Source of the DNA: an uncultured Candidatus Saccharibacteria bacterium
GTDB lineage: Bacteria > Patescibacteriota > Minisyncoccia > Phycocordibacterales > UBA9973
DNA length: 64,000 nucleotides
Assembly (NCBI GenBank): GCA_964544225.1
Contig: CAZIZK010000003.1
Coordinates: 8,419 to 72,418 of the forward strand
Direction: 5' to 3'
In this document: positions 43,561 to 61,074 of the stretch, one piece after another
Position numbering within the stretch: the first letter of the stretch is position 1
Layout: each line of letters begins with the position of its first letter
The notes under the pieces: generated by a model
The model's input: only the letters and a program-made list of their open reading frames with translations
Database searches by the model: none
What the model was told of the DNA's origin: nothing
Position numbers and translations under genes: made by a program

Positions 43561-43590
43561 TAAATAACCCTTTATTTCAAAGGGTTATTT
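43561..43590. terminator. Terminator at the end of the surface-protein operon
   Basis: TAAATAACCCTTT-ATTTC-AAAGGGTTATTT. The stop codon of CDS 43572..45164 lies in the loop. Confidence 0.5.
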
Positions 43591-45164
43591 GGTGTATTTG
43601 GACTATTTTTACCAGATTCTAATTCAGGAACAAAAGCTGTTATTTCTGAATGTTTACTCTCTGCTATAATCGGTGTTTTAACATTTATAACAGGTGTTGG
43701 ATATTTAGGTTTTGGAGCGTCAGGAATACTATCGATAGATACATCCTCATTTACTTCAATTGTTTTATTTTCTATTGGTTTAGCTGGTTCGAGTGATATT
43801 AATTCTTCTTTTTTTATTATAGGTTTTATTTCTTCTGTTTTTATAGGTTTTACTATTGGCTGTACTGGTTGTTGTACTGGTTTTTCTATTTTGTCTATAT
43901 TGTCGTCAGACACAGATGTCTTTTTAAAGATAGAGTACACTCTGCGTAAACGATCCAGTATGTGGTGGCCGAACAAATAGTGCAGTAATAACTCAGCAAG
44001 TATAATTAATAATATTAGTAGCAATAGGTAGATAAAGTATTTTTTGAAAAATGAGATAAATGTAAAACCTGGATATAGGTCGACACTTGCTTCCCTAATA
44101 TTGCCGGCTGTATCGTATGCCCGCACAATAACTCGCATACTATCAGCTGTCGTATTTGGAGCCAGATACGGGCTCTGTGTTTCAATAAATACAGGCGAAG
44201 CCACCTCACCGCTATTATTATCCACTACTCCGACTTCATAATGATCTATTCCTGCTAGTGTATCTGTGGTCAGAAATGATACTAGATACTTTTTTGCTCC
44301 AACTGCGTCTTTTAGATTACTAACATCCAGGGAGAAATTTGCAGGAGGAGCTGTGTCTATCTTTATCTGGAAATGTGTTGTGTTGCCCCACACACCCAAC
44401 GCTATCGCACGTACGTGGAAATACCATATACCATTTTTCAAATTGGTATATGAATACGATGTATCATTGGTTGTAATATTTGTCGGGGGTATCGTATTGG
44501 GATTAGAATCCATCGCAATACTAAAACCTTGTATATTTGGTAAACTTTCCCAGCGCAATATAGGACTATTGTTGTTATACCACTGTTCTTGGATAGGGTG
44601 AGTTTCCGAAGATATTACTACACCTTCTGGAGCTTTGGGTGTAATAGTATAGAACCCGCCACTACGTGACAACTTTACATCGGTACCCAGACCATCATCC
44701 AGATTTGCACTAGAATAATCACTAATAGTTATCCCTGCATTTCCTGTTCCTATTGTTTTAAAAGTAATTGTAGCTATTAAACCCGAGCTTGTCGTAATAC
44801 CACCTGGGATAACACCGGCCATACTAGCGGTACCTATCTTGTTATCATACTTTGGAGCCTGGATCCATATACCAAAGATGGACTTACCACCTGAAGGGTT
44901 CACTATTGCCAATTTTGCCGGATTAAAATCTATCTTTAAACTAATAGTATTAATACGGTTCAAATTCGTATTAATATACACAGGAACTTCAAAGGTAGAC
45001 CCAACTATAAAGTTACCAGTACGGGGTGTTACGAACAATTCCGCCTTTGGTAAAAGCGATGGTCCATATAGATCTATAGTCTGAGCTTTTGTGTAGAATA
45101 CAGGACTGAACAATAAAAAACATAGATATATAGATATAAATATTTTTTTGAATACTTTTATCAT
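43572..45164 (-). CDS. Membrane-anchored surface protein with a cohesin-like domain (paralog 3 of 3)
   Basis: It has a signal peptide, a beta-sandwich region with a cohesin-like pattern (TFEVPVYINTN..ISLKIDF..AKLAIV...IATITFKTIGTGNAGITIS), a C-terminal transmembrane helix (YLLLLILLIILAELLL) and a cytoplasmic tail with KP/PV-type repeats. Confidence 0.55.
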   Translation of the reverse strand: MIKVFKKIFISIYLCFLLFSPVFYTKAQTIDLYGPSLLPKAELFVTPRTGNFIVGSTFEVPVYINTNLNRINTISLKIDFNPAKLAIVNPSGGKSIFGIWIQAPKYDNKIGTASMAGVIPGGITTSSGLIATITFKTIGTGNAGITISDYSSANLDDGLGTDVKLSRSGGFYTITPKAPEGVVISSETHPIQEQWYNNNSPILRWESLPNIQGFSIAMDSNPNTIPPTNITTNDTSYSYTNLKNGIWYFHVRAIALGVWGNTTHFQIKIDTAPPANFSLDVSNLKDAVGAKKYLVSFLTTDTLAGIDHYEVGVVDNNSGEVASPVFIETQSPYLAPNTTADSMRVIVRAYDTAGNIREASVDLYPGFTFISFFKKYFIYLLLLILLIILAELLLHYLFGHHILDRLRRVYSIFKKTSVSDDNIDKIEKPVQQPVQPIVKPIKTEEIKPIIKKEELISLEPAKPIENKTIEVNEDVSIDSIPDAPKPKYPTPVINVKTPIIAESKHSEITAFVPELESGKNSPNTPNNPLK

Positions 45165-46558
45165 ATTTCCTTATCAAGATCTTTAACTTCTTTAATTAAC
45201 AATTTCTCAGCATCTTTCAAGTCTTTCTTTATTTCAGACATTGAAGCATGGGCACCTGATGCAACATCGTCTGCAAGGATGCCAAAGCTCTTAGTAATTG
45301 TGTCTTTTGTTTCTTCTATTTTCTGACGTAACTTCTTGTGTGACTTGTGTGTTCTGTATACAAAGTACATAGATATGAGTAAGCATATCAATAGCAACCA
45401 TAATACAATTATGTTACTTGAGAACAAATTTACAAATTTACCCCATGAATTCAAGACAACTTGAAAAGTTACCGGGGCACTCTCTACACTCTGTGCGCCA
45501 TCTTCTATAACAGTTTTGGCTGTCACAGTGTACCCACCTAGTGTGACCTTTGAATCAGATACGTAACTGAACTTACCATTACTATTGGTATGTGTATGTG
45601 CGACTGTTAGTTGGTCTGTTACTGTATTTAATATATTGAGCAGAACATCACTATCAGGCTCGGCTAGACCCTTGAGTACTATAATATCTCCAAGGTGAAG
45701 TTCCGTAGGGTATGTTGTAATGATGGGTGTTATAACAACATTGTTATAAAACTTTATAAAACCATTCATGCTGTTGCCATACTTATCAAATGCTTGAACA
45801 CTTATATTGTGATCACCTTTTGACACAGGCGGTGTCTGGAATATATGAGTCCCATCATCTACCCACGAAATTATATCCAAAGAATCAATCTTTACTGTAT
45901 AGGTGTCGTCTTTGGCTTGTCTTGGGGATAGTATTAGAAATTTAGGAGGCACATTGCTTGCCATGTTCTCCTTTATTTGTTGTATCTTGATTGTAGAGTC
46001 ATTGTTGGCACCAGTTGTCTTGTCTTCTGTTACTTGTACTTTTGGAACAACCGAAGCCGATATATTGAAAGTGGCCGTACCCTTGCCAGATATTAGTTCG
46101 GTACCATTGCCATCATTTGCAAGTATAGATGCAGATATAAATGATACATTGGCAACACCGATTGCAGTTGCTTTGAATGTAAGTGTGGCAACTAGGCCAG
46201 CGCCACCACTGTAACCATTGCCACCGAGTATCCCCCCTATGAGTGAAGCAGTGCCCGCACTATTGGAAAAGGCTGGGTCAACGATCCAATTTGTTATAAT
46301 ACTTCCACCTTTTGATATAGATACAAGTTTCAGAGTATCAGTCGAGAATTTGATACTATCTTCAGTTGCATTCACTGGAACTCCATTTGTATTTATCAAA
46401 ACACTGACTTTTATGGTGTCACCAACTTTATATGAGCCGGAATTTGGACTGAGGTTGATACTGGCAGCGTGTGATATGTGCGACACGGTAAATAAAGCTA
46501 TTAGTATAAATAGTTTTATAAAATTTACATTAGAATATTTTTTACTTAATCTTTGCAT
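45161..46558 (-). CDS. Membrane-anchored surface protein with a cohesin-like domain (paralog 2 of 3)
   Basis: It has a signal peptide, a cohesin-like module (GDTIKVSVLINTNGVPVNA..IKFSTDTLKLVSI...VATLTFKATAIGVANVSF), a C-terminal transmembrane helix and a charged tail. It overlaps its neighbour by 4 nt. Confidence 0.55.
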   Translation of the reverse strand: MQRLSKKYSNVNFIKLFILIALFTVSHISHAASINLSPNSGSYKVGDTIKVSVLINTNGVPVNATEDSIKFSTDTLKLVSISKGGSIITNWIVDPAFSNSAGTASLIGGILGGNGYSGGAGLVATLTFKATAIGVANVSFISASILANDGNGTELISGKGTATFNISASVVPKVQVTEDKTTGANNDSTIKIQQIKENMASNVPPKFLILSPRQAKDDTYTVKIDSLDIISWVDDGTHIFQTPPVSKGDHNISVQAFDKYGNSMNGFIKFYNNVVITPIITTYPTELHLGDIIVLKGLAEPDSDVLLNILNTVTDQLTVAHTHTNSNGKFSYVSDSKVTLGGYTVTAKTVIEDGAQSVESAPVTFQVVLNSWGKFVNLFSSNIIVLWLLLICLLISMYFVYRTHKSHKKLRQKIEETKDTITKSFGILADDVASGAHASMSEIKKDLKDAEKLLIKEVKDLDKEI

Positions 46559-47438
46559 GACGCTTCTTCTTGTTCTTCTTTACAAACAATAGCGCCAATA
46601 GGACAATAATAAATACAATAACAGTAGTACCCAGTATTGCGTATAATGGCGGATATATAACTACTGTTGCAAAATTATAAGCAAAGTCAGTAGCCTTAAC
46701 TTTAATTATACTCTGATGTGACTGATCTTCCAATAGATATGGGCTCGATACAGCCTTCCATTGACCCAACAATCCCTCCTTTACCATTACATCCTTCATG
46801 CCTACCCCTCTATCTATCGCCTGAAATATAAGTGTGTATTTATTATCGAAAAGATTTTCGTCTTTTTCTACACTTGCTATCAATTCCGGCTTGTTCGTAT
46901 CATCTATTTTATAATCTGTATTAATTGATTCAGAATTTGTATCTATTAGCACAGAAGTAGACTCGATATTATTAATAGTTCCTAAGCCGTCGTTTTGAGT
47001 TACAACAATATTCTGTGTAGATACCAGAGCATTACCAACTTTTGTAGACTTAAATACTAATCGCATTATATTGCCAGACTTTTTCTTTTCACTATTGATA
47101 GTATCTATCACTCCTGTAAATCCGTTCGGTATAATACCTGAGAAATTAATTGTATCTCCTATTGTATTTGGGTGTATGAGCCATGCACGTACTATGGACT
47201 GACCATCTTCTACACGAACAAGCTTTATTGTATCGTTATTTGGTATTGATACGGAACCCTCGATACCATTGATATCATTGCCTTGTACATCGAGCATTAC
47301 ATCTATGTAGAACTCACTACCTACACCAACGCTCTTGTTGGGTATATCGAAATACACACTTGGGTTAGCCGCCTTTACCAGGCTAGGTACAAGAGTAAAG
47401 ATACAGACTAATAAAATTGTATAAAATATTTTTTTCAT
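46542..47438 (-). CDS. Membrane-anchored surface protein with a cohesin-like domain (paralog 1 of 3)
   Basis: It has a signal peptide, a cohesin-like module (GSEFYIDVMLDVQGNDINGIEGSVSIP...MRLVFKSTKVGNALVS), a C-terminal transmembrane helix and the basic tail KKNKKKRHAKIK. Confidence 0.55.
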   Translation of the reverse strand: MKKIFYTILLVCIFTLVPSLVKAANPSVYFDIPNKSVGVGSEFYIDVMLDVQGNDINGIEGSVSIPNNDTIKLVRVEDGQSIVRAWLIHPNTIGDTINFSGIIPNGFTGVIDTINSEKKKSGNIMRLVFKSTKVGNALVSTQNIVVTQNDGLGTINNIESTSVLIDTNSESINTDYKIDDTNKPELIASVEKDENLFDNKYTLIFQAIDRGVGMKDVMVKEGLLGQWKAVSSPYLLEDQSHQSIIKVKATDFAYNFATVVIYPPLYAILGTTVIVFIIVLLALLFVKKNKKKRHAKIK

Positions 47439-47439
47439 A

Positions 47440-48780
47440 TTATCCTGTCCAGTTATAAGCTAATATACTAAAGTCGACTAGTGACACCTTCTTATCATTA
47501 TTCAAATCAACTTTGGCTGGAACATTTGGCTTTGTATACCAATAAGCCATAATAGAGAAGTCGATCAAGTTCACATGCCCATCACAGTTCAAGTCTCCAC
47601 GTAGTGTCGAACAATCCAATGGGTCTTTCTTTATGTTTTGATTACCAACATTGAATGCTACTGCTGTACCATAGTTACTAACCTCGCCACTTTTTGCCGC
47701 TTTGGATTTGGTAAGGTGACCCCCTATTTCAAGAGGTGCTGTATCAAAGTTCAATAGATATACTCCATTATTATCCGATGGTACGTTCTTGAAATATTCC
47801 TGTTCAGAGTGGACCGAGATAGTAACTTGTGCATTTGGCACACTCTGACCAAATATAACAACATTGTCGCCTTGCTTTACCTCCTTCTTGTCTGTATCGA
47901 TAGTTGGTGATAGGAATATACTACCAATATTTATAGTTGCACCTTCGGTAATATATACAGGGAAAGAGAATGATGCGGACTTCTTGTTCTGTGAGTCTGT
48001 CCCATATACTGAGAAAGTATATGTACTGGATGAGAGCCCAGATAGGCTAACACTAAAGTTGGCTTGTGGGTCTGCTATTGTACTTGCCACGATCACACCA
48101 TCTTTGAGTATATACACCTTCGATAGTGGAAAAGCGCGTCCAGAAAAGTTAACTACACCTGTACCCCCTGTTGTTGTGGTTCCTCCACCTCCGCCGCCTC
48201 CTCCGCCGCCTCCGCCTCCTGCACCACCTGCACCCGCCGGTGTAGATGATACAGCTGCAGACTCACTGAGGAGCAACCCTGAGGCATAAGCCCTTACTTT
48301 AAAATAATACGTAGTACCATTCGTTAACCCAGTCACCGTATTACCTAGTACATTACCAACTACACTATATGTAAATGGCCCAGATGGTGATGTAGATACA
48401 CCCACAGAATAGCTTGTAACATTCGCCAGTACCCCTACCGACGCTGTCCAAGATAAAGCAACTGTGGTGTTCCCTGCTGTTGTAATCAATACCGGAGTTG
48501 TAGCTGTCGGGAAATACAAAAACCCTGCATTCTGAGCAAAGCTTGTACTTGAACTCTCGCCATTATCTAACTGCCCAGAACTAGATAAATATCGGAAGCT
48601 TGCAGATGATGCTTCACCACCCTCTATGATAGAATTTACAGGATTCTCCATCTCAAAGCTTGTACTAGTAAAGTCGGCTCGTGATATAGCAAAAAACAAC
48701 CCCATCAAAACAAAGATAGAAAATATTTGTAAAACTAATTTTCTATTCTGTTTTTCTTTAGAGTTGTTTTTCATAACCAT
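47440..48780 (-). CDS. Secreted protein with a fibronectin-III domain, a poly-Gly linker and a type-I dockerin
   Basis: The FN3 signature is TGLTNGTTYYFKVRAY. The linker is a G16 tract. The C-terminal duplicated calcium-binding dockerin repeats are DLNCDGHVNLIDFSIMAYWY and DLNNDKKVSLVDFSILAYNW. Confidence 0.7.
   Translation of the reverse strand: MVMKNNSKEKQNRKLVLQIFSIFVLMGLFFAISRADFTSTSFEMENPVNSIIEGGEASSASFRYLSSSGQLDNGESSSTSFAQNAGFLYFPTATTPVLITTAGNTTVALSWTASVGVLANVTSYSVGVSTSPSGPFTYSVVGNVLGNTVTGLTNGTTYYFKVRAYASGLLLSESAAVSSTPAGAGGAGGGGGGGGGGGGGTTTTGGTGVVNFSGRAFPLSKVYILKDGVIVASTIADPQANFSVSLSGLSSSTYTFSVYGTDSQNKKSASFSFPVYITEGATINIGSIFLSPTIDTDKKEVKQGDNVVIFGQSVPNAQVTISVHSEQEYFKNVPSDNNGVYLLNFDTAPLEIGGHLTKSKAAKSGEVSNYGTAVAFNVGNQNIKKDPLDCSTLRGDLNCDGHVNLIDFSIMAYWYTKPNVPAKVDLNNDKKVSLVDFSILAYNWTG
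48181..48240. repeat. (GGNGGN)n simple repeat that encodes the poly-Gly linker
   Basis: TCCTCCACCTCCGCCGCCTCCTCCGCC... lies inside CDS 47440..48780. Confidence 0.6.
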
Positions 48781-48821
48781 ATATATGCACTACTGACTAA
48801 GCTTATGCCAGATTTACATTA

Positions 48822-49250
48822 TTATGGCTTCTTCTCTGCTGTAGTAGTTGTAGTCTTTGCTGTTGTAGTAGGTGTTGTAGCTTTTGTTGTGCCTGCACCA
48901 ATATTTAGTGGAGCTATGTTCAAAACTTTATTTAATGTTGGGCTGTACAAGATAGCCTTCTTTGCTTGAGCATATATTAGAACCTTGTCACCTTGTTGTG
49001 CGCTTGCAAAGAAAGGTTGGTCCTTCAATGCAGCTAAGTCTGTAACTGTAGCTATTGTTGGTGTCTCACCTTCTGGCAATACTGTAACAGTCGCTACTTT
49101 TGCAACTAGATCTTTTACTTCTTTCTGAGCAATTGCTTGTGGATTCTTCTTCAAAGTATTCCACTGATAGTAGAAGTAACCTGACAATGCAAGTGCTACT
49201 ATAGCAAAAGCTGGAGCTACCATGTTTATAATCTTTTGTTTGTTCATCAT
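48822..49250 (-). CDS. Hypothetical membrane-anchored protein of 142 aa with a Thr-rich tail
   Basis: It has an N-terminal transmembrane helix and the C-terminal tract TTKATTPTTTAKTTTTTAEKKP. It lies between the giant gene and the dockerin gene. Confidence 0.45.
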   Translation of the reverse strand: MMNKQKIINMVAPAFAIVALALSGYFYYQWNTLKKNPQAIAQKEVKDLVAKVATVTVLPEGETPTIATVTDLAALKDQPFFASAQQGDKVLIYAQAKKAILYSPTLNKVLNIAPLNIGAGTTKATTPTTTAKTTTTTAEKKP

Positions 49251-49377
49251 TTTTAGTATATTTTTAAATTAATAATTACAACACAAAGGGCCAAAACCCT
49301 ATATAAGTATCATTATAGTTTATATAAACACAGAGAGCAATACTTTACAACGTGTTAGATATTAGATATGGTAACGT

Positions 49378-52300
49378 TTAAAAAAATGATTTAAATGCAC
49401 TTGCAAGAGCAAAGAATCTTGGTATATAGCTAGGTGTAAACTTCCATAACATAAAGCCGATATCTCCGCCACCACCTCCGCCTTGGTCTCCACCACTATT
49501 TGGATTATCAGGGTTTCCACTACCTTCAGAGCCCCCTCCACCTCCGCCTTGGCCGCCGCCGCCAACATCAGCATCAGGTGTCGCTGATGACTCTACCCCA
49601 CCTCCACCGCCACCATATGACCTAAATGTAAATGTCCATCCAGTATTTGTAGACCCACCAGTTGTGTCATCCACACTACCAGGACCAGCATGTATTGATA
49701 TAAAGTTACTGTTACCAGATGCCGCACTGTCACGCAAAGATATGAATTCACTTGTATAAGCACCATAACCAGCAGTGGTTGGTGCTAAGTATAGGTTCCA
49801 ATCTGTACCATTGCTTGTACTGTTTAATGTAATCAAACTATCTGATGTTCCTTTTACATCCCATTCTTTTACTGTCTGAGTACTACTTGCAGTAAACTTC
49901 ACTGTATGTGGTGGATTAATAACACTGAATTTATTAAACGTATTACTGCCAGATATTATAAAGTCTCCAGTACCAGTCCCTGCAAACACAACATTGTAGA
50001 ATGTTTGTCCTCCTCCTGCAAAAGTCTTGCTACTTGCAGATGAATCAGTTAGGTTAATTGTCTCACCAGTGCGTGTATATGTACCCGATGAATAATTAAA
50101 CACAGTGCCTGCACCTGACAAGTTGATTGTAGAAGAGTTTGGCAAGAATGTTCCTCCGGTAATGCTGATAGCACCCGAGTTCAATGTATAGCTAGAACCA
50201 GATGAAGTATCGAGCGTTCCACCAGATATGGTTGTTGTACCCACAGCTGTAGTTGCACCACCAAGAGTCTTTGTGCCAGATGTTGATATGGTTAAGTTAC
50301 CATATGAAAGAGTCTGATCAATTGTTTGAGTACCTGCAAGATTGTAGTTAACAGTAGAAGTCGCATTGAGTGTCTTTGTGGTGAACCCACTATCATAGCT
50401 ACCAGCAAATGTAGATGCACCTACTGCAATTGTGCCACTTGCCCCAACAGACAATGTATTAGTACCAGTACCTGTGACCAAGTATGTAGCTGGGTTAAAT
50501 GTACCAGCAGTAACTGAAAGTGTTCCAGATGTTGCAAGGGTAATACCAGCACCTAGAGTTTTAGTACCAGTACCTGAACTTGTTAGATTATAAAATACCG
50601 GAGAACCACTATTGATTGTCGCATCACCATTACCTGTTAGGTTAACAGTTGATGTACCCGCATCTAGGTAGCCATTACCAGATCGTGTTACAAGTGTCCC
50701 AGATGTTCCAGCAATAGATATTGTTGAAGCATTTGCTGATAGTGTACCACCATCTAATATTATTTTGTTTGCAGATATTGCATAGTTACTTACTGCATTT
50801 GTATCCAGGCCTCCACCTGTAAGAGTTAGGTTATTGGTAACAGTTAGTGCTTCACCGAGCCTGTTCTGATACGCACCAGATGCAAGTGTTAGGTTGTAGA
50901 ATGATGGTGTACCAGATGCAAGTGTTGTAGGCTCTGTAACACGTATGTATCCAGTACCTGTACTGATACCTTCTGCAAACAAACCTCCAGCAGATGAACC
51001 GTTAGAATTGTACCTTGCTGCCGCACTTACATCACTGTCTGTTTGTGATACCCATGTTACTCCCGCATCATCGGATGTATATATTTGGGTATTTGCTCCA
51101 CCACCTCCGGCATATTCAGTTGCTATTAGGCGCTGGCCATCAGCACTTGAATCTACGGCGAACCAGTTCCTACTTCCTGACGAGTTACTATTTGTTGACC
51201 AGTTCGCACCACTATCTGTGGAAGTATAAATATACCCACCATAAACACCTGCAACCATTTTTGTCCCGTCGTATGATGTGTCTACTCCTTTCCAGTTCAG
51301 GCTTGAACCTCGTGGTGTCCAATTGGCCCCATCATCGGTTGATACATACAACTGACCATTAGAAATAGAAGCAAGCATTGTTGTCCCGTCCCCTGATACT
51401 GAAATATGGTTCCAAGATGTTGAAGTAATAGACCCAGAAGCAGCCCAAGTAACACCATAATCCGTAGAGACATATACTTTATTGCTAACAGTCCAAGTAA
51501 CAGCTGCCAATTTCTTACCATCGGCAGACATTGCAATACCTGAAACTCCAGATACTGTCTGGCGTGATGTCCATGTTGCCCCACCATCATCTGATGTATA
51601 TATAGTAGTTCCTACCGCAACAGCCGCACGTAAACCATCGGCAGACATTGCTGCATCTGATGCATTGCCAGAGGTCAAATTAGATTGAGTCCATGTTAGT
51701 CCATAGTTAGTTGAATAATACATACCACCATTACTAGCATTACCAGCTATCATGCGTGCACCATTTGCAGATACAGCTATCTTTGAGTACACATCTTGTG
51801 TGTAGTTACTCAATACCCATGACAACTGATCACTTTGATTTGTAATATTTACAGTACTTGTGTCACTGTTAAATGTTCCAGAGGATTTTGTAAACAATGT
51901 ACCTTGTGATGCAGTTAGGTTTATAGTTGAATTATTTGCAGTTAGTGTTCCCCCACTTATTACAAGCTTGCCAGTTGTTAATGAATAGTTATTACTAAAT
52001 GATGTATCCAAGGTTCCGTTAGATATTGTTGTTATATTTGTAACAGTAGTGTTGGCACCGAGTGTCTTTGTACCTGTGCCACTAGATGTAAGGTTATAAA
52101 ATGTTGGGGTACCACTATTTACAGTGGCACTACCGTTACCAGTAAGGTCCACAGTGGAACTAGCAGCAGTAAATACACCAGAGTTTGTAAAGAGTGTTCC
52201 ACTTGTACCAGAAAGATTTATAGTTGGTGTACCTGTTGCTGTGATTGTACCGGCGTTTGACAATAATTCTGTTGTGATAGATTCCGTAGAACCACTATCG

Positions 52301-55300
52301 ACTGTTAGTGTATTGCTCGCCAATACAGACAGTGTCTCGCCTGTATATGAATTGCTACCACCTTGGACAAGCAAAGCACCTGTCACAGAAGTATGCATCA
52401 CATCCTCATCGTCGGTGGCTTCGTATTGACCCATATTCGTAACAGATACACTATTGTTTTGGTTACTACCGATTGTTAGAACATTTGTATTTAAAACCAT
52501 TCCTGTAATATTTCCCGAGCCTGCGTATTTAGTTATGGCAGTAGACTCTAGATTGTCGGCAACGTTATCAACCCATGTAGTTATAATATCATTAGTAGTT
52601 GCTGGTACACTGACAGTCCAAGCACTACTACTGATAGTCCCTGTACTTACACCAAGTGTCCCATTGACAGCAACTTTTACAGTTGCTGTATCGTTACCAT
52701 TGGCTGTACCTGAGACAGATATACAGTTAGCTGCTGTCCAAGTCGTGTCCCCTGACAATGTAGAGTTGTACACAGTAACACTAGCACCTGTCATATCGTC
52801 TACATCTAGATTGTGTAGATTGAATGTTCCAGTTCCTGTTGCACCACTAGACCAAGCTCTTGTTGTGTTATTTACACTGGATCGAACCAATATACTATTT
52901 GCCCCATCTACACAGAATGCTCCATTGCCAGAGTTCAAAGTAATAGTACCCGAGTTGGTAACAGTACTAGACAATGTCACAGATCCTGTACCAATATTTT
53001 GCCAGACACCAGATGTTGCAACTGTAACTGCACCAGATGTTAGATTGTTACCTTGATCGTATGTACCGTTATTTATAGTCATTGTGGAACCCAAGGTCAC
53101 CACCCCTGTAGTGCTTAGTGTACCTGTACCGTATTTTACAAGTCCCGATGCTGAACCCATCGTACCAGCTACTGTGATTGTGTAGTCGTTAGTATCAAAT
53201 GTTCCAGCCGATGTCAGTGTCACAGCTCTACCAGACGGTGAAGATATGTCACCCCCTGCTTGAAGTGTTCCACCGTTAAATATTAGCGTATTATTAGCAC
53301 TTTCATCACCCAATGCGCGAGATTTGGTTGCGCGTAAAACTCCAGCTGTGATAGTCGTAGTACCAGTATAAGTATTTGTTCCAGACATTGTAACTGTACC
53401 GGCCGTCGTCTTCGCCACAGCAATTGCTCCACCCAGAATCGCACTGACTGTACCACTCGCAAATGGATAAGATGTTCCAGTCAAAACTCCGCTACTACCT
53501 ATTATAGATCCACTGGTTAATGTAACCGCCCCTACTGTATCGGTAAATGTGGCAATATCAGCAGTACCCCCAGTAACTGTAAGTGCGCCACTTGATAATG
53601 CATTATTAATACCCCAAGCAAGTGTTCCGGCATTTATAGTTGTTGTTCCAGCAAAAGTGTTGGCCGCAGACAGTGTCACAGTCCCCCCAGTGTTCTTTGC
53701 CATAGCGATCGCTGCACCAGCGAGAACTGCACTGATTGTTCCACTCTCTACGGTATATGTTGCTGATGACGTAATAGTTGCCGCCCCACCAGTATTTACG
53801 ATTGAGCCACTTATCAAAGTAACGGCACCTATTATAGTAGTACCTCCTTCAGAATAACCTTTTAGATCCCATGTTCCGCCAGCTACAGTTACAGCATTGG
53901 TTGCCAATGCGTCTGTAATACCATATGCAAGAGTACCACCATTAATACGCACCAAACCTGTGTTAGTAGCTACTGCACTTATAGTAAGTGTTCCAGCACC
54001 ATCTTTTGTCAGAGTTGCCGAGGTTGCTGCCCCATAGACTCCACTTATAGTTGTAGGACCACTTCCATTTATCCATAAATTTATTGAAGCCGCAGCTCCA
54101 ACAGCACCAGTGAATGCAATAGTACCCGCGCCAGAATTAGTAACTATAGAGTTCGCACTTACAGTCACTGCACCAAAGTTAGTAGTACCAGACGCCGCTG
54201 AACTAATCAATGCGCCACCGTTTTTTATACCAGTACCACTAATAGCCAATGTCTCGTATGTAGATGCACCACCCAGATTATATGTAGAAAGATCAAGCAC
54301 TGCTCCGGCAGATACTGTAGTACCTGCACCACTTGTACCCAGTGGTGTATTCGTAGCACCACCACTTGCCCCTAGCTGGAGGACCCCCGTACTCACGGTG
54401 ACAGTTCCAGTAGTAAAACTATTCTGCCCGGCTAAAATGAGCGTGCCCGATCCTTCTTTTACTAAAGAAGTAGAAGTACCCGACCAAACACTTGATGAAG
54501 ACTGAGTAATATTACCCACTGTTACAAATGTTATAGCACGAGTCGAACCTACAATATTACCACTTAGAGTGAATAAGCCAGTTCCATGGTTAGCAAGACG
54601 AGATGTAGCACCAGGAGTAATAACTCCAGAATATGATATTGAATTATTCGAACTATTGATAAATGCTCCAATGCTTGCAATACCTGTTCCGTTAATAGCT
54701 AGGGCTTCAGCAGTACCAAGAGTAAATCCATTCAAATCAAAGACAGCTCCACTTGTGATAGATATTCCACCAGCATTTGTACCAAGTGGCGTATTTGTTC
54801 CATTTCCAGCAGCTCCAAGCTTTAATGTCCCCGCACTAACTGTAGTTGCGCCCGTAAATGTACTTGATGCGCCAGATATTGTCCAAACCCCAACACCGTT
54901 CTTTGTCAAAGTTCCTGATGTTGTATTTAATTGACTTGCAAAAGTTCCATTGCCTGCACCACCAATAGTTAGACCAAAGGTATTACCCGTCATGTTTCCA
55001 GTAGCAGTAATATTGATATCACCATAGTTAGCAATAATAGTACCAGCACCAGTAGTCAGGACAATCTGCCCACTATAAGAAACATTAGTACTTGAAGTAT
55101 TTTGCAAACCACCAGTCGCAAGCGAAGCCCCACTCAGAGTCAAACCTTCAGTAGTGCCAAGAGTATAACCATTTAAATCAAGTGCTGCAGTTGCACCAGA
55201 TACAGTCGTACCACCAGCAGTTGTGCCAAGTGGTGTATTGGTACCGCCACCAGCTGCCCCAAGGCGAAGAGTCCCGGCACTAATAGTAGTTGCCCCTGAA

Positions 55301-58300
55301 TAAGTGTTGTTACCTGACAACATAAAAGCTCCAGCCCCAGCTTTTGCAAAAGTAAAACCTCCGCTTATTATAGCCGATGCAAATGCGTCGTTATCCATGA
55401 GCCCATCACCTATAGTAAATGTTGCATTGGCTCCTAGGCCCAAGTTACCAGTTATTATTGAAGCAACGTTGTTGTTGGCTACAGTTGTAAATGTTCCATT
55501 GCCTGTCAGAGTTCCTGCACCTGTAGCAATAGTACCAGCGTTTATAGAGATAGAGCCCACAGTGTCAGAATTACCATTTAGATTATAAGTACCCCCTACT
55601 ATAGTCACACCTCCACTTGATATGACATTACTTGCACCCGCAAAAAGTGTTGCACCGTTTATAAATGTTGTACCAGTATAAGCGTTAGAGGCACTAAGTG
55701 TAACATTACCAGAACCACTGAGTGTTAATGTGCCAGCTGCTGCAGTATCTAAAATTGCAGATATAGTAGAAGTATTTGTAGAGAGTACAGGTAGTTCCAA
55801 AGCACCAAAACCAATAGTTGTATTAGCTCCGGCAATATTTGTTGCCGAGTTCATTAAAATATTTCCAGACAAAGAGGCAGAGGCCAGTGTAATAGTTGCA
55901 GAAGCATTGGTAATACCATAACCATTTAAAATAAGTGAATTGATACTTACAGTACTTGCTGCCACATCAGCAGTCAATTTTACATTTGTATTTGTAGTTA
56001 ATGTCGTAGAATATTCTCCAGAAAATCCAGCACCGTTTAGTAGACGCAACCCTGTTCCACCTTGGTATGTCACCATATCTGACCCAGTACCACTAAGAGA
56101 TGTGTCCCCAAAGGCACCCTTAATTACACTAACAGTTGTTGAACTAGATGCACCACCGGCACCAGTAAGTGTTGGTGTTGCAGTGAATACTAAAGTAGAT
56201 ATGTTTGCTGCAGATGCTGTTCCTAAACTAGTACCTCGGAATAGTACCGTTGCACCCGCTGTACGAGAAAGACTGGCAAATGTCATAACAGTAGAACCAC
56301 CAGTTCCTGGAGTCACAGTTACAGTGTTATGCCCTGTTGATAAAGTTAGAGCCCCAGTGGTTTCAGAAGACCCAGCCGCAGAATTACCAATAAAATTAAA
56401 ATTACCACCGTTCATAGTTAATGCCAGTGCGTCACCCAAACGACTTGCTACAGCAGTGGTGCTATTATCAAGTGTCAGTGTTCCACCTAGGTTTACTGTA
56501 ATAGTTGTAGCAGTAGCAGAACCTGAGCCACTAATAGTCAGTGTTCCAGCATTAATAGTAGTTGTACTACTAATAGTATTTACACCAGTTAGTGTAACTG
56601 TATTGTTTGTATTTTTAGTAACAGCTACAGCGCCCGCCAGAATTGCACTAACTGTCCCACTTTCCATAGTATATGCAGTTCCGGTCAAAACACCACTAGA
56701 ACTAGTGATAGATCCACCGATCAAAGTAACAGCACCGACAGTGTCACTAAATGTTGACATACTATAAGTCCCACCTTTTACAACCAACGCTCCAGAAGAC
56801 AAGGCGTTGAGTATACCTGCGGCTATTGTTCCTGCATACACTGTTGTTGTTCCAGTATGGCCATTGGCCGCAGTCAGGTTCAGAGTACCAGATCCATCTT
56901 TATATAAAGAACTCGCAGTCGCTGCAATTGCAGCAGAAATAGTTATATTACCAGAGCCACCATATCTTGATTCAAATGCACCACTTTGTATACCACTAAG
57001 TGTTAAAGTTCCTGCACCATTATTTGTAGTTCTACTATCAGTTGCAAGCGCTCGAGTACCCAGATAAGTCGCACCAGCAGCATTACTTGATATCATAGCT
57101 CCACCACCATCTATTCCAAATCCATTGATAGTCAGTGGTTCAGCTAAAGCACTAGAAGAGAATGTAACAAGATCAAGCACTGCCCCACTATAAACAGTAG
57201 TGGCACCAGTAACAACCCCGAGTGGTCCACCTCCGGCTGCATCACTAACACCAAATTTAAATGTTCCCAGGTTTATAGCGGTTGCACCAGTATAAGTACT
57301 CACACCTGAGAGAGTCCAAGTTCCTGTACCAATCTTCACAACACCACCAGTAGTATTACCAACAATACTAGACAGAGTTCCTGTACCAGTACCACCAAGA
57401 GTGAGCGCAAAACCAGCTCCTGAGATTGTTCCAGCAGCGGTCAGATTGATATCACCATTATCAGCTTTGATAGTAGATGCTGCACCGAGCGTAATAAGCC
57501 CTGTAAATGTCACAGCAGAAGCTGAGCTATTTATAATAGCTCCGGATGCAAAGTCTCCCAGCCCGTACCCTACACCGTTTAGGTTTGTTATTGGTTCGGC
57601 TATTCCAAGTGAAAATCCATTTAGATCAAGTCTTGAACCTGTGGCAATAGAGGTGGCACCCCCTGTGGTACCCAGTGGTGAGTTTGACCCGACAGCTATT
57701 GCACCAATCTTTACTGTACCAACACTGATAGTTGTTGCACCTGTATATGACGAGTTACCATTTGAAAGAGTCAGTACCCCTATTCCGTCTTTAACTATAG
57801 TACTAGTACCAGAGCGCACTCCTGAATATTCCAGATTACTAAACCCACCGAAAGTCAATGCAAAGTTCCCAGAAGCATTGCCACTAATAGTCAGTGCTCC
57901 ATAGTCAGCGTTGATACGAGCCGCCGCAGTAAGAGTAAGAGCCCCACTATAGCTAACAGGTGTTGCCGAGCTATTCATGATTGCACCCATGTTACTACTA
58001 CCAGAAGCTCCATACCCTGTTCCTGCCAAAGACGATATTGCTTCTGCTGTTCCCAAAGTAAAACCATTTAGATCTAACGCTCCCCCACTTGCAATAAGTG
58101 TTTCAGAGCCAGCCCCAGCAATACCAAGTGGTGTGTTTGTTCCACCACCAGCAGCACCAAGTTTCAAAATACCGCTGGTAATAGTTGTTGTTCCTGTATA
58201 AGTATTATCGCGAGTAAGCGTTACAACACTATCAGGTGCAGTGTTGGTAGCGATACGTGTTAGTGCAACACCTGTACCATTTATAATAGCACTGACAGTT

Positions 58301-61074
58301 CCCTCGCGAAAAGAGTACGATGTTCCACTTAACACACCAGTGGATCCTGTAATAGTTCCTGTTTGTAAAATTACCGCACCTACACTATCAGTAAAAGTAG
58401 CAATATCGAGTGTTCCACCATTGACCGTCACATTACCAGAAGATATAGCATTACTTATAGAATAAAGTAGTGTTCCTTGGTTTACAGAAGTAAGCCCTGT
58501 ATAGTTTTTCGCAGAAGAAAATTCCAAAGTACCTGCACCACTTTTAGTAAGACCAGTAGACCCTGTGATATTTGAAGAGATTGTTAGATTTACTGGATTT
58601 AATACATGCAATTCCACAGCACCACCTGCAATTGTAGTGTTGGCCCCAGCAATAGTGTTACTGGAAACTAAGTTCAATATATTACCTGAGGTAAGTGTGA
58701 TAGTTTGTGATGTTCCTGCATCAGTTATATCGGCTGAGCCACTTAGTATAAGTGAGTTAATAGAAGATGTAGCTGCTACTGTAGTGGTTGATAGTTTTAC
58801 ATTGGCATTGGTTGCCAATGTAAATGCATATTCACCGGAGAACCCAGCCCCATTTAGTAGGCGCAAACCATTACTATTACCCACACCATATGTAACCATA
58901 TCAGTACCAGTGCCACTTGTCGAATCATCACCAAATGCTCCGGCAATGATACTAATAGTTGTAGAGTTCGCAAGGCCAGCACTACCTGTCAAAGTTGGGG
59001 CTGTTTTGAACAATAAAGTCGAAACATTGGCAGCAGGAGTTGAGCCAAATGAATTACCTCGGAATAGTATGGATGAGCCCGCCGTTCGCGTGAGTGACGC
59101 GAACTGCATCGTCGTGGACCCTCCCGACCCGGGGTCAATAGTTATAATATTATTACCTGATTGCGTGGCTATACCAGATGTTAGTACACCCGCACTTTCG
59201 TCCATATCTGCCGAGCTTGAACCTATCATTTCAAATTCACCACCGTTCATTGTCAGTGCCAATGAATCAGCCAGGCGGTCAACTACAGTTGATGAGCTAC
59301 TATTATCTAGTGTCAGTTTACCACCCGAGCTTATAGTCATAGTAGTTGAAAGAGGCATTGCCCCACTACCACTGAGCACCAAATTACCATAGTTAATATT
59401 TGTCGCGCCGGTAAAGTTATTGAAGGCTTGTAGAGTTAGTGTACCAGCATCCTGCTTGGTCAACGTTGCACTTGTACCATATATAGGTGCATCCGAGGCA
59501 AAAGTAGTATTACCCAAACCACCAATAGTAAGGCCGAATGTGACTGCTGAAATACCTTTGTCATCAATAGTAAGTGTAGTACCAGTATCTGCCTCTATCA
59601 TGGCTGCCGCACCCATTGTGAGCAAGCCTGTCAAAGTATTACTACCGGTAGTATTATGAATAGCAGCACTGTATAAATGCCCTGTTCCAGAAAATGTAAT
59701 ATATTCAGGGATTGAAAGACCTGTTCCGTCTATCTGCAGTGTTGCACCAGCAGATACAGTAGTAATACCATCGATCAAACCTAAAGAAAGACTATCTTGA
59801 ATTTTAAGTATACCAGCAGTTACTGTCGTAGCACCGGTGTACTGGTTTGGCCTTGTTAGTGTCACTGTACCTGTTGTACTTTTTGCCAATGTTCCAGCTT
59901 GACCTGCAATAATTGCACTGATTGTGCCTTGGTAAACTACCCATGATCCACTACTAAGCATTCCAGTAGATCCGGTAATTGTTCCCGAAGCTAAATCAAG
60001 GGTACCAAGTGTCACAGTACCCACCATGTCTGAATATGTTGCAATGTCCAGTGTCCCCCCTGTAACAAACACAGTTCCTGATAAAATTGCATTATCTGTT
60101 CCATAAAGAAGTGTTCCAGCATTTATAGTTGTAGCGCCTGTATAAGTATTTGGGAAATTATATGTCAGTGTACCTGCACCATTTTTCGTAACAGTACTAA
60201 CAGCTGTAGCAATAGGTGCTGTTGAGTATGTAACATTCCCCGCACCATCTATCACCAATGGGAATGCCCCAGCCATACCACCTTTTAATGTTAGTGTTCC
60301 AGAGTCTGACGCTATTTCGGTACCACCACCCGATGATAGGGTGATGAGTCCACCATAACTATTACTACCACTAATATTGCGAAGTGCGCCACCTCCAGAA
60401 ACACCGTACCCGCGCAGTGCCAATGCTTCATAACTAATATTTATATCTCCTTGCAGTTCCAATGCTGCACCACCGACAACTTCCGTACCTGCCAAGTATG
60501 TTCCAAGAGATCTATTGTTTCTTGCATTAACAACACCCACATTTATTTTTAAAATTCCACCAAAAGTATTGGCACCAGATAATATCAAAGTTCCAGTTCC
60601 TTCTTTGTTGATACCGCCCACACCAGCAATACGCCCACTGATAGTTAGACTCTCGGCAGTATTAGTAACAAAAATATCTCGAGTTGCATCGAGGCGAATA
60701 TCCAGTGCAATAGTGTTACCACCAGAAGAAGAACTATCTGTAATACCAGCAAGTCCTGCACCAAGGATTAATGGATTTCCAGAAAGGGTGTAACCACTAG
60801 CAGAGATAGTAATCGAATTGATAATTGTATTTTCAGTAAGATCATTTGTGTTGGAAAGATTTGATGCAGTGCCAGGAAATAATAAATCATCCCCCGTAAC
60901 AGGAGCAACACCACCTGACCAGTTAGAACCCACTGACCATGCACCACTTGTTGTACCTGTCCAAGTCCTTGTTGCAGCATATGCATCATGAAGATTAAAA
61001 ACAAAGAAAGAAAAACAAGCAATAGAAAAAATTGCTAATAATTTAATTATTTTATTGATTTGATTTTTAATCAT
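49378..61074 (-). CDS. Giant secreted surface protein of 3898 aa. It is built from autotransporter-associated (PATR-like) beta-strand repeats plus a BNR/Asp-box beta-propeller, and carries a C-terminal Gly-rich region followed by a hydrophobic tail.
   Basis: It has a signal peptide (MIKNQ...AYAATRTW). It contains dozens of degenerate repeats of about 30 aa of the type GAGTLTLSGANTYTGATTINAGTL. At about 51040..51760 it contains 6 to 7 S-x-D-x-G-x-T-W blades (YYSTNYGLTWT, YTSDDGGATWT, YVSTDYGVTWA, YVSTDDGANWT, YTSTDSGANWS, YTSDDAGVTWV). The C-terminus is a Gly-rich region followed by FMLWKFTPSYIPRFFALASAFKSFF. Confidence 0.85.
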   Translation of the reverse strand: MIKNQINKIIKLLAIFSIACFSFFVFNLHDAYAATRTWTGTTSGAWSVGSNWSGGVAPVTGDDLLFPGTASNLSNTNDLTENTIINSITISASGYTLSGNPLILGAGLAGITDSSSSGGNTIALDIRLDATRDIFVTNTAESLTISGRIAGVGGINKEGTGTLILSGANTFGGILKINVGVVNARNNRSLGTYLAGTEVVGGAALELQGDINISYEALALRGYGVSGGGALRNISGSNSYGGLITLSSGGGTEIASDSGTLTLKGGMAGAFPLVIDGAGNVTYSTAPIATAVSTVTKNGAGTLTYNFPNTYTGATTINAGTLLYGTDNAILSGTVFVTGGTLDIATYSDMVGTVTLGTLDLASGTITGSTGMLSSGSWVVYQGTISAIIAGQAGTLAKSTTGTVTLTRPNQYTGATTVTAGILKIQDSLSLGLIDGITTVSAGATLQIDGTGLSIPEYITFSGTGHLYSAAIHNTTGSNTLTGLLTMGAAAMIEADTGTTLTIDDKGISAVTFGLTIGGLGNTTFASDAPIYGTSATLTKQDAGTLTLQAFNNFTGATNINYGNLVLSGSGAMPLSTTMTISSGGKLTLDNSSSSTVVDRLADSLALTMNGGEFEMIGSSSADMDESAGVLTSGIATQSGNNIITIDPGSGGSTTMQFASLTRTAGSSILFRGNSFGSTPAANVSTLLFKTAPTLTGSAGLANSTTISIIAGAFGDDSTSGTGTDMVTYGVGNSNGLRLLNGAGFSGEYAFTLATNANVKLSTTTVAATSSINSLILSGSADITDAGTSQTITLTSGNILNLVSSNTIAGANTTIAGGAVELHVLNPVNLTISSNITGSTGLTKSGAGTLEFSSAKNYTGLTSVNQGTLLYSISNAISSGNVTVNGGTLDIATFTDSVGAVILQTGTITGSTGVLSGTSYSFREGTVSAIINGTGVALTRIATNTAPDSVVTLTRDNTYTGTTTITSGILKLGAAGGGTNTPLGIAGAGSETLIASGGALDLNGFTLGTAEAISSLAGTGYGASGSSNMGAIMNSSATPVSYSGALTLTAAARINADYGALTISGNASGNFALTFGGFSNLEYSGVRSGTSTIVKDGIGVLTLSNGNSSYTGATTISVGTVKIGAIAVGSNSPLGTTGGATSIATGSRLDLNGFSLGIAEPITNLNGVGYGLGDFASGAIINSSASAVTFTGLITLGAASTIKADNGDINLTAAGTISGAGFALTLGGTGTGTLSSIVGNTTGGVVKIGTGTWTLSGVSTYTGATAINLGTFKFGVSDAAGGGPLGVVTGATTVYSGAVLDLVTFSSSALAEPLTINGFGIDGGGAMISSNAAGATYLGTRALATDSRTTNNGAGTLTLSGIQSGAFESRYGGSGNITISAAIAATASSLYKDGSGTLNLTAANGHTGTTTVYAGTIAAGILNALSSGALVVKGGTYSMSTFSDTVGAVTLIGGSITSSSGVLTGTAYTMESGTVSAILAGAVAVTKNTNNTVTLTGVNTISSTTTINAGTLTISGSGSATATTITVNLGGTLTLDNSTTAVASRLGDALALTMNGGNFNFIGNSAAGSSETTGALTLSTGHNTVTVTPGTGGSTVMTFASLSRTAGATVLFRGTSLGTASAANISTLVFTATPTLTGAGGASSSTTVSVIKGAFGDTSLSGTGSDMVTYQGGTGLRLLNGAGFSGEYSTTLTTNTNVKLTADVAASTVSINSLILNGYGITNASATITLASASLSGNILMNSATNIAGANTTIGFGALELPVLSTNTSTISAILDTAAAGTLTLSGSGNVTLSASNAYTGTTFINGATLFAGASNVISSGGVTIVGGTYNLNGNSDTVGSISINAGTIATGAGTLTGNGTFTTVANNNVASIITGNLGLGANATFTIGDGLMDNDAFASAIISGGFTFAKAGAGAFMLSGNNTYSGATTISAGTLRLGAAGGGTNTPLGTTAGGTTVSGATAALDLNGYTLGTTEGLTLSGASLATGGLQNTSSTNVSYSGQIVLTTGAGTIIANYGDINITATGNMTGNTFGLTIGGAGNGTFASQLNTTSGTLTKNGVGVWTISGASSTFTGATTVSAGTLKLGAAGNGTNTPLGTNAGGISITSGAVFDLNGFTLGTAEALAINGTGIASIGAFINSSNNSISYSGVITPGATSRLANHGTGLFTLSGNIVGSTRAITFVTVGNITQSSSSVWSGTSTSLVKEGSGTLILAGQNSFTTGTVTVSTGVLQLGASGGATNTPLGTSGAGTTVSAGAVLDLSTYNLGGASTYETLAISGTGIKNGGALISSAASGTTNFGAVTVSANSIVTNSGAGTIAFTGAVGAAASINLWINGSGPTTISGVYGAATSATLTKDGAGTLTISAVATNTGLVRINGGTLAYGITDALATNAVTVAGGTWDLKGYSEGGTTIIGAVTLISGSIVNTGGAATITSSATYTVESGTISAVLAGAAIAMAKNTGGTVTLSAANTFAGTTTINAGTLAWGINNALSSGALTVTGGTADIATFTDTVGAVTLTSGSIIGSSGVLTGTSYPFASGTVSAILGGAIAVAKTTAGTVTMSGTNTYTGTTTITAGVLRATKSRALGDESANNTLIFNGGTLQAGGDISSPSGRAVTLTSAGTFDTNDYTITVAGTMGSASGLVKYGTGTLSTTGVVTLGSTMTINNGTYDQGNNLTSGAVTVATSGVWQNIGTGSVTLSSTVTNSGTITLNSGNGAFCVDGANSILVRSSVNNTTRAWSSGATGTGTFNLHNLDVDDMTGASVTVYNSTLSGDTTWTAANCISVSGTANGNDTATVKVAVNGTLGVSTGTISSSAWTVSVPATTNDIITTWVDNVADNLESTAITKYAGSGNITGMVLNTNVLTIGSNQNNSVSVTNMGQYEATDDEDVMHTSVTGALLVQGGSNSYTGETLSVLASNTLTVDSGSTESITTELLSNAGTITATGTPTINLSGTSGTLFTNSGVFTAASSTVDLTGNGSATVNSGTPTFYNLTSSGTGTKTLGANTTVTNITTISNGTLDTSFSNNYSLTTGKLVISGGTLTANNSTINLTASQGTLFTKSSGTFNSDTSTVNITNQSDQLSWVLSNYTQDVYSKIAVSANGARMIAGNASNGGMYYSTNYGLTWTQSNLTSGNASDAAMSADGLRAAVAVGTTIYTSDDGGATWTSRQTVSGVSGIAMSADGKKLAAVTWTVSNKVYVSTDYGVTWAASGSITSTSWNHISVSGDGTTMLASISNGQLYVSTDDGANWTPRGSSLNWKGVDTSYDGTKMVAGVYGGYIYTSTDSGANWSTNSNSSGSRNWFAVDSSADGQRLIATEYAGGGGANTQIYTSDDAGVTWVSQTDSDVSAAARYNSNGSSAGGLFAEGISTGTGYIRVTEPTTLASGTPSFYNLTLASGAYQNRLGEALTVTNNLTLTGGGLDTNAVSNYAISANKIILDGGTLSANASTISIAGTSGTLVTRSGNGYLDAGTSTVNLTGNGDATINSGSPVFYNLTSSGTGTKTLGAGITLATSGTLSVTAGTFNPATYLVTGTGTNTLSVGASGTIAVGASTFAGSYDSGFTTKTLNATSTVNYNLAGTQTIDQTLSYGNLTISTSGTKTLGGATTAVGTTTISGGTLDTSSGSSYTLNSGAISITGGTFLPNSSTINLSGAGTVFNYSSGTYTRTGETINLTDSSASSKTFAGGGQTFYNVVFAGTGTGDFIISGSNTFNKFSVINPPHTVKFTASSTQTVKEWDVKGTSDSLITLNSTSNGTDWNLYLAPTTAGYGAYTSEFISLRDSAASGNSNFISIHAGPGSVDDTTGGSTNTGWTFTFRSYGGGGGGVESSATPDADVGGGGQGGGGGGSEGSGNPDNPNSGGDQGGGGGGDIGFMLWKFTPSYIPRFFALASAFKSFF

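Follow-up and report, generated by a model that had tools for sequence, protein, structure and literature searches.

Introduction

Single cohesins fixed at the cell surface are known from OlpA, OlpC and SdbA of Clostridium thermocellum and from ScaE of Ruminococcus flavefaciens. These proteins are attached through SLH domains or by sortase, and the partners that they capture through dockerins are enzymes or scaffoldins. Cohesins and dockerins also act outside cellulose degradation: in the glycosidase/toxin complexes of Clostridium perfringens (2vo8, 2jh2) the modules sit on secreted enzymes and join these enzymes to each other, and a further cohesin comes from Archaeoglobus fulgidus (2xdh). 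Here we report on a cluster of six genes in a 64,000-nucleotide stretch of contig CAZIZK010000003.1, from a Patescibacteria genome (Candidate Phyla Radiation, CPR). The whole stretch is referred to below as the window. The cluster encodes a secreted, rod-like dockerin protein together with three paralogous cohesin proteins, each anchored by a transmembrane (TM) helix, and we trace the arrangement of dockerin and cohesin genes through related loci.

The locus resembles OlpA, OlpC, SdbA and ScaE in presenting one surface-fixed cohesin per protein, for which capture of a dockerin partner is proposed here, and cohesin paralog A counts the cohesins of OlpA and OlpC (3ul4, 4dh2) among its fold matches. 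It differs from them in its anchor, a TM helix at the C-terminus that leads into a cytoplasmic tail, with no LPXTG motif found, and in its presumed partner, an enzyme-free FN3-Ig-Ig rod encoded next door at one dockerin to one to four cohesins. As in C. perfringens and A. fulgidus, the modules occur outside cellulose degradation, and 2vo8, 2jh2 and 2xdh are among the five best fold matches of the paralog A model. Unlike those of C. perfringens, the cohesins are integral membrane proteins, enzymes are absent, and a fixed triad of genes is conserved across a major bacterial radiation.

So far, the components implicated in the CPR surface and in host attachment are type IV pili, a type IV secretion system (T4SS) and a small number of adhesins without names (PMC10633639, PMC11665869). 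In Southlakia epibionticum, a dockerin-domain protein, SEML1_0315, is required for epibiotic growth (PMC10633639). We considered orthology between this protein and the rod described below and set it aside; SEML1_0315 is encoded by a stand-alone 2784-nt gene between hydrolase and tRNA genes, with no cohesin neighbors listed. Our literature search, which was not exhaustive, found no description of a cohesin-dockerin module in Patescibacteria.

Results

The dockerin carrier is a secreted rod

The six genes, as called from their open reading frames, are the following.

49378..61074, minus strand: gene of the giant protein, 3898 amino acids (aa)
48822..49250, minus strand: gene of the small membrane-anchored protein, 142 aa
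47440..48780, minus strand: gene of the dockerin rod, 446 aa
46542..47438, minus strand: gene of cohesin-TM paralog A, 298 aa
45161..46558, minus strand: gene of cohesin-TM paralog B, 465 aa
43572..45164, minus strand: gene of cohesin-TM paralog C, 530 aa
47443..47607, minus strand: dockerin domain of the rod, residues 392-446 (Pfam Dockerin_1)

An independent public gene call on an identical contig gave the same six lengths (3898, 142, 446, 298, 465 and 530 aa).

The rod begins with a signal peptide, which is followed by a Ser-rich N-terminal motif (residues 36-95), an FN3 domain (96-181), a poly-Gly linker, two Ig-like Big_6 domains (207-381) and the C-terminal dockerin (392-446). The Pfam scores for fn3, Big_6 and Dockerin_1 (32.5, 34.2 and 25.8 bits) each exceed the gathering score; the Dockerin_1 match (PF00404, cut-off 22.9 bits) covers residues 395-440. 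The dockerin is made of two near-identical Ca-loop/helix repeats, DLNCDGHVNLIDFSIMAY and DLNNDKKVSLVDFSILAY, which form two tandem segments of ~22 residues with Ca2+ loops of the DxNxDGxxxxxD type, DLNCDGHVNLID (396-407) and DLNNDKKVSLVD (425-436). Among 16 sequences, loop residues D396, N398, D407, N427 and D436 are invariant. Across 117 homologs, D396 and D436 are again invariant, and the Asp and Asn residues of the loops are invariant or nearly so. Docking onto a cohesin, if it occurs, would be expected to depend on Ca2+.

The AlphaFold2 (AF2) model of the rod (mean pLDDT 84.7) shows the signal helix, the N-terminal motif, FN3, the Gly linker, the two Ig-like domains and a two-helix dockerin with helices at 405-415 and 434-445. 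Its matches in the PDB are strings of FN3 and Ig domains (fibronectin, contactin, SiiE, Bap). The profile match, the paired repeats and the modeled helices thus bear out the dockerin that a first-pass annotation of this DNA, made from the letters of the sequence, had assigned. The same annotation took the carrier to be an FN3 protein free of enzyme domains, and so it is: the FN3-Ig-Ig rod holds the sole dockerin in the window.

Homologs of the rod number more than 1200 at E <= 0.001, and many of them have a precomputed PF00404 match. The best 120 listed are 46-64% identical to the query; those that carry names are few among these and nearly all come from Patescibacteria. Of the top 150 cluster representatives (clustering at 50% identity), 108 are 290-690 aa long. 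A representative search gave a family size of 2170 at E <= 1e-30, a figure that is inflated by multi-FN3 giants and is used qualitatively only. The N-terminal motif is conserved and near-invariant among the homologs. The idea that this motif is a tag common to giant proteins was rejected; it is essentially limited to the dockerin family, with two exceptions.

Three paralogs carry membrane-anchored cohesins

Downstream of the rod gene lie the three cohesin-TM paralogs. In each, the N-terminus resembles a signal sequence, and the C-terminal part holds a single TM segment with basic residues behind it; this order would put the cohesin outside the cell, at the tip of an Ig-like stalk. Paralog A consists of a signal peptide, a cohesin (24-170), an Ig-like domain (180-262), a TM segment (263-286) and a short basic tail. 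In paralog B, the signal peptide and cohesin (32-168) are followed by a Big_13-like Ig-like stalk, a TM segment (374-399) and a tail of ~65 aa, while paralog C has a signal peptide, a cohesin (~40-175), two Ig/FN3-like domains, a TM segment (367-398) and a tail of ~130 aa. With one cohesin and one TM segment per protein, the cohesins are membrane-anchored and have no scaffoldin, as had been read from the sequence at first. The cytoplasmic tails have features of their own: that of paralog B (45164..45361, minus strand) looks coiled-coil, and the corresponding family of second-position cohesin proteins keeps a tail of ~60-70 aa, while that of paralog C (~130 aa) is rich in Pro and Lys.

The identity of these N-terminal domains was established from a profile, from family homology and from fold. 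Pfam Cohesin (PF00963) matches paralog C with 31.6 bits against a cut-off of 24.1. The three paralogs share ~30% identity across their N-terminal 120-220 aa (BLASTP E 8e-9 to 4e-14, with B against C at 4e-14), and the family of paralog A aligns with that of paralog B at an hhalign probability of 100% (E 1.8e-47) over the cohesin and the next Ig-like domain. Cohesin is the sole Pfam family that recurs on the N-terminal domain, in 4/42 members of one family and 13/40 of the other, the latter being the second-position family.

The AF2 model of paralog A has a pLDDT of 90.6. Compared with the PDB by Foldseek, it has 75 matches at E <= 0.001 overall, and its top single-domain matches are the solved cohesins 2vo8, 2xdh, 4dh2 and 1g1k (2vo8: E 2e-7, TM-score 0.78). 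Target-normalized TM-scores of the cohesin matches range from 0.6 to 0.78, with an rmsd of ~3 Å for the best, in keeping with the nine-stranded jelly-roll (beta-sandwich) fold of solved cohesins. Many of the matched cohesins were solved in complex with dockerins. The profile of the paralog A family also matches the R. flavefaciens cohesins 5aoz and 5m2o. The near-invariant residues of the family (N57, W86, P90, F99, G101 and D150) lie in or just past the long beta-strands 3, 5, 6 and 8 of the model, which we take to be strands of the dockerin-binding sheet. The first reading of this locus had named unrelated Ig-like folds in the three paralogs as the outcome that would undo the cohesin assignment; they form one family, and the modeled member matches cohesins.

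Dockerin and cohesin genes form a conserved triad

Profiles made from the window proteins were applied to 63 related loci, and gene linkage was counted in the 58 with at least 1.2 kb of DNA downstream of the dockerin gene. A same-strand cohesin-TM gene lies downstream of the dockerin gene in every one of them (58/58), and immediately adjacent to it in 53/58. Two cohesin-TM genes are present in 42 loci, three in 8, one in 7 and four in 1. The median length of the cohesin protein is 301 aa at the first position and 482 aa at the second. Dockerin proteins are single: within ~20 kb there is one dockerin protein in 68/71 dockerin-positive loci, and more than one in just 3/71. Given this invariant linkage and the usual presence of two cohesin genes, we regard a dockerin-cohesin-cohesin triad as the conserved unit, of which the window holds the three-cohesin version. 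That dockerin and cohesin genes make up a functional unit, as proposed when the cluster was first noticed, thus has strong support from synteny.

The related loci come almost all from metagenome-assembled genomes (MAGs) of Patescibacteria, and their record titles cover Nomura-, Kaiser-, Wolfe-, Vogel-, Uhr-, Falkow-, Magasanik- and Gracilibacteria. The organism labels of many TPA MAG records ('Saccharibacteria', 'Gammaproteobacteria') look unreliable and were excluded from this taxonomic breadth. The window itself is chromosomal, with rpoB/C, sigma-70, dnaG, gyrB, uvrA/B and tRNA synthetase genes, and its GyrB is 82-87% identical to that of MAGs named Candidatus Nomurabacteria, Paceibacterota or Patescibacteria. 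The source genome is tiny and, on sequence grounds, that of a Nomurabacteria-like member of the Patescibacteria.

In a locus from Limnocylindrales (Chloroflexota; L067, 2..6964), at or outside the edge of the main family, three dockerin proteins adjoin a TM-anchored cohesin protein, so that TM-anchored cohesins are perhaps not confined to Patescibacteria. Three dockerin proteins were also seen in a Saccharimonadales locus (L070).

A proposed surface complex and its alternatives

Beyond domain identity and gene linkage, all that we say of the module is interpretation. We think it probable that these genes build a conserved Patescibacteria surface complex on a non-cellulosomal cohesin-dockerin pair. 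In the proposed process, two or three type-I membrane proteins would each hold up a cohesin at the outer end, with an Ig-like stalk, one TM helix and a cytoplasmic tail below it. The TM-anchored cohesins would capture, in a Ca2+-dependent manner, the C-terminal dockerin of the secreted FN3-Gly linker-Ig-Ig rod. The captured rod would then be tethered to the membrane, with its conserved N-terminal motif and FN3 domain projecting outward through the wall. The triad would serve as a fixed anchoring platform, and the surrounding genes would supply exchangeable surface cargo or accessories; in the window, these would be the small TM protein, a giant with PATR repeats and a candidate BNR-type propeller, a protein resembling beta-lactamases and another large protein. 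We infer the physical binding of cohesin and dockerin from the sequences and their gene order, and the complex may have a role in host-cell attachment. For a protein of the cell surface the rod shows high conservation, and the neighboring large proteins are diverse; a fixed platform fits this better than a host-specific adhesin. The cytoplasmic tails of the second-position cohesin family or of paralog C could couple the surface complex to the cell interior. As speculation, a dockerin with two-fold symmetry and the regular presence of two distinct cohesin proteins might allow alternative or simultaneous binding.

Several points weigh against this proposal. The case for cohesin-dockerin binding comes from genomic adjacency in the 58/58 loci. 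Such adjacency is suggestive and not proof, since dockerins with no known cohesin partner are reportedly common outside cellulosomes, as work by Peer et al. in 2009 is said to have found. Related loci share phylogeny, and the counts are not independent events. The dockerin census covers the 64 kb of the window, and other carriers may exist elsewhere in the genome. The PDB profile match of the paralog A family is weak and partial (E 6e-4). Finally, the Ser-rich N-terminal motif of the rod is modeled at a pLDDT below 50, which leaves the working end of the complex undefined.

A further set of observations would suit cohesin-like and dockerin modules that are neighbors and do not bind each other, the former being generic Ig/CBM-like adhesive domains (CBM, carbohydrate-binding module) and the latter a Ca2+-binding stabilizer or a module for some other partner. 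Taken alone, paralogs A and B fall below the Pfam Cohesin threshold, and A is without any Pfam match; sequence identity between paralog A and the solved cohesins is just 11-19%; and integrin and AgI/II beta-sandwich proteins are also among its fold matches. We nevertheless hold this reading to be very unlikely. It has to contend with the 58/58 linkage and the stoichiometry of one dockerin to one to four cohesins, with the fact that the best single-domain fold matches are cohesins, many solved with their dockerins, and with the near-invariant residues that map to, or just after, strands of the presumed dockerin-binding sheet.

Cohesin and dockerin are the pair of the cellulosome, our view is limited to 64 kb of the genome, and extra dockerin proteins occur in three related loci (L051, L067 and L070). 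One might thus picture a minimal cellulosome-like polysaccharide degrader, whose dockerin-bearing enzymes are encoded elsewhere and dock on the membrane cohesins. We consider this extremely improbable. No catalytic, carbohydrate-active enzyme (CAZyme) or CBM domain was found in the six cluster proteins in Pfam and NCBIfam scans, and the window contains no glycoside hydrolase, no dockerin-bearing CAZyme, no CBM and no multi-cohesin scaffoldin. The dockerin carrier next to the cohesins always belongs to the enzyme-free Ig-rod family, and the single dockerin protein within ~20 kb in 68/71 loci also speaks against docked enzymes. Since enzymes, CBMs and multi-cohesin scaffoldins are all absent, the module is not a cellulosome, and the initial view that it is not a cellulolytic complex holds.

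Gene order and candidate regulatory signals

The first-pass annotation described six co-directional minus-strand genes between one promoter region and a terminator, and the open reading frames do lie in this way between a promoter-like site and a stable hairpin. Its account of the spacing was right for the 4-nt and 17-nt overlaps and for the 41-nt gap; the gap between the dockerin gene and the paralog A gene is 1 nt and not 2. It did not mention that a gap of 127 nt separates the giant gene from the small gene. The signals in and around the cluster are as follows.

61114..61142, minus strand: promoter-like site TTTACA-17-TATAAT upstream of the giant gene (consensus match only)
49251..49377, minus strand: 127-nt gap between giant and small genes, a possible internal promoter or attenuator (hexamers and a weak hairpin)
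43562..43590, minus strand: terminator-like hairpin that overlaps the stop codon of paralog C and precedes a T-rich run

The upstream site (61142..61114) scores 11/12 and is the top sigma-70-like match in a scan of 19 kb, which is consistent with the promoter first placed there. The hairpin at the other end (43590..43562) has a 13-bp stem, a free energy of -13.2 kcal/mol and a z-score of -3.4, with 0/200 shuffles equal to it; together with the T-rich run that follows, it fits the terminator of the first annotation. The 127-nt gap holds TTGTAA-18-TATATA and a TATAAT hexamer, as well as a weak 5-bp hairpin (49300..49287). Because of these promoter-like hexamers, the five genes downstream of the gap may have a promoter of their own and may be expressed independently of the giant. 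The six genes may be co-transcribed. An Rfam scan of the cluster returned no match.

The giant looks like a variable neighbor

The giant protein had been described as built from passenger-type beta-strand repeats plus a BNR beta-propeller behind a signal peptide. A signal-like N-terminus is present, and PATR repeats, a beta-strand unit of 30-32 residues, span residues ~300-2600; PATR (PF12951) matches in 17 stretches (E 1.3e-44, 150.3 bits), and TIGR02601 matches with E 1.5e-56 (187.5 bits). For the propeller, the evidence consists of six Asp-box motifs, whose pattern is S-x-D-x-G-x-T-W, ~40 residues apart (region 3121-3341, at 3121, 3161, 3203, 3245, 3285 and 3334); the Pfam BNR score of 18.1 bits stays below the threshold of 27. 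Gly residues abound at the C-terminus, which closes with a short hydrophobic stretch, and no dockerin and no LPXTG motif were found in the protein. Repeats at the DNA level are old (60-78% identity), and the gene has no sign of recent duplication or of a phase-variation tract.

51025..51777, minus strand: candidate BNR-type six-Asp-box propeller of the giant, residues ~3100-3350 (Asp-box motifs)

With its 17 PATR stretches and signal peptide, the giant resembles PATR beta-helix proteins and autotransporter passengers. It departs from autotransporters in having the candidate six-Asp-box propeller and the Gly-rich C-terminus, and in lacking a detected beta-barrel: no autotransporter beta-barrel family was found in the Pfam and NCBIfam scans, and the protein does not qualify as a type V autotransporter. 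Patescibacteria are thought to be without an outer membrane.

A specific link between the giant and the module, which the first-pass annotation had suggested, found weak support or none. Homologs of the giant occur near the module in just 4/63 loci (L003, L025, L043 and L049), the 127-nt gap with its possible promoter stands between the giant gene and the rest, and the giant has no dockerin. In this locus the PATR giant has the look of a variable insert, and nothing we saw marks it as a dedicated partner of the triad.

Other neighbors and the envelope alternative

In the small 142-aa protein, a TM segment at the N-terminus is followed by a conserved domain of ~75 aa and then by a tail rich in Thr and Pro. 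No relative was found in Pfam, NCBIfam, PHROGs or the PDB, and its family lies directly upstream of the dockerin gene in 16 loci. Beyond the giant gene, three further genes are of interest.

61232..62023, plus strand: Hsp20 gene, which recurs beside the module in 6 other loci
62050..63003, minus strand: beta-lactamase2-family gene (Pfam PF13354, E 4e-39), which recurs beside the module in 8 other loci
63033..64000, minus strand: C-terminus of a type-A large surface protein, at least 320 aa, from an open reading frame (63033..63998) that runs open to the right window edge

The protein at the right edge, for which there is no Pfam match, combines a conserved domain in its C-terminal part with a tail rich in Pro and Thr. 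It matches the C-termini of type-A open reading frames of 609-2909 aa in 10 loci (several cut by the contig end), which sit upstream of the small, dockerin and cohesin genes; the small protein is present in all 10. Judged from these matches, this subtype of the module is tracked by a large protein other than the PATR giant, namely the type-A protein of the right edge. In a Nomurabacteria locus (L003) the order is that of the window: type-A, Hsp20 on the opposite strand, PATR giant, small, dockerin and cohesin genes. As the type-A protein and the beta-lactamase2 gene recur beside the module, the locus extends beyond the coordinates first given to it. The recurrent beta-lactamase2 and Hsp20 neighbors hint at a wall or stress link.

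Two mutually exclusive accessory sets flank the triad in the related loci (0 overlap). Set 1, to which the window belongs, is marked by the small TM protein, which is often accompanied by a type-A large protein (16 loci). Set 2 consists of two families of ~350 aa (24 loci), whose profiles find nothing in the window; it lies upstream of the dockerin gene in L025, L026, L031, L034, L041, L043, L049, L050 and others. The secreted family of set 2 ('c0') ends ...TEAGSYTTTLTYVATANF and has no Pfam match. In the TM-anchored family, 11/17 members weakly match WxLIP_PGBD (PF06030; best E 4e-5). Set-2 loci thus recall the WxL/Csc complexes of Firmicutes, in which PF06030 is the WxL-interacting protein. 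They differ in that the partner family has no WxL match, and the likeness is weak and confined to related loci, the set-2 genes being absent from the window. A WxL identity for the c0 family was rejected, as there is no Pfam WxL match and no PDB match. We also rejected a link to type IV pili for TM proteins of ~400-500 aa that are found upstream in some loci and resembled PilB/PilC; Pfam identifies them as a MacB/FtsX ABC transporter, a histidine kinase and proteins with TPR repeats. In L059 (3437..6014) and L060, a few genes separate the triad from an upstream MacB/FtsX-type ABC transporter pair.

If the complex forms as proposed, its role could still be in envelope architecture and not in host attachment, as a membrane-wall or S-layer tether or in wall organization, with the giants as unrelated cargo encoded in the same neighborhood of surface-protein genes. 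Such a role would agree with the conservation of the rod (46-64% identity in the best 120 homologs listed, near-invariant N-terminal motif), with the diversity of the large neighbors, with the recurrence of the beta-lactamase2/PBP-like gene in 8 loci, and with the conserved cytoplasmic tail that the second-position cohesin family keeps. It is at odds with the position of the large surface proteins: genes of at least 900 aa are found just upstream of the triad in 20/44 loci and just downstream in 4/43 (Fisher p 2e-4, for loci that are non-independent). Furthermore, the Pfam and NCBIfam scans of the six proteins revealed no domain for binding to peptidoglycan or to an S-layer. We consider a purely architectural role rather unlikely, and prefer the platform that carries exchangeable surface proteins. 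A common C-terminal sorting tag on the large upstream proteins was also looked for and rejected; their C-termini fall into several unrelated types.

Apart from the module, a single 305-aa open reading frame elsewhere in the window (36842..37759, minus strand) joins a NusB domain (7-137) to a NUDIX domain (191-288).

Discussion

The triad can be taken further than the evidence for its parts. It might be a previously undescribed envelope organelle of the Patescibacteria, in which two cohesins, one on a short stalk and one on a long stalk with a conserved cytoplasmic tail, clamp the two near-identical faces of the dockerin to form a transmembrane-coupled tether. Lineage-variable adhesins (the PATR giant, the type-A giant, the WxL-like sets) would be mounted on the rod motif, and the whole would be the common chassis of episymbiont attachment. 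This extended version is distinctly unlikely, and we offer it as a conjecture.

Little is known of how Patescibacteria assemble their cell surface and keep hold of their hosts, and the module provides a testable lead. It is a compact gene set, found across many classes of Patescibacteria, with a plug-and-socket pair that is biochemically well understood. Two questions give a direct handle on it: which of the cohesins the dockerin binds, and to what the rod attaches by its N-terminal motif. The pair would also offer a natural orthogonal tool for surface display. If the proposal is true, cohesin-dockerin biology would extend to a membrane-anchored, enzyme-free, stoichiometric complex.

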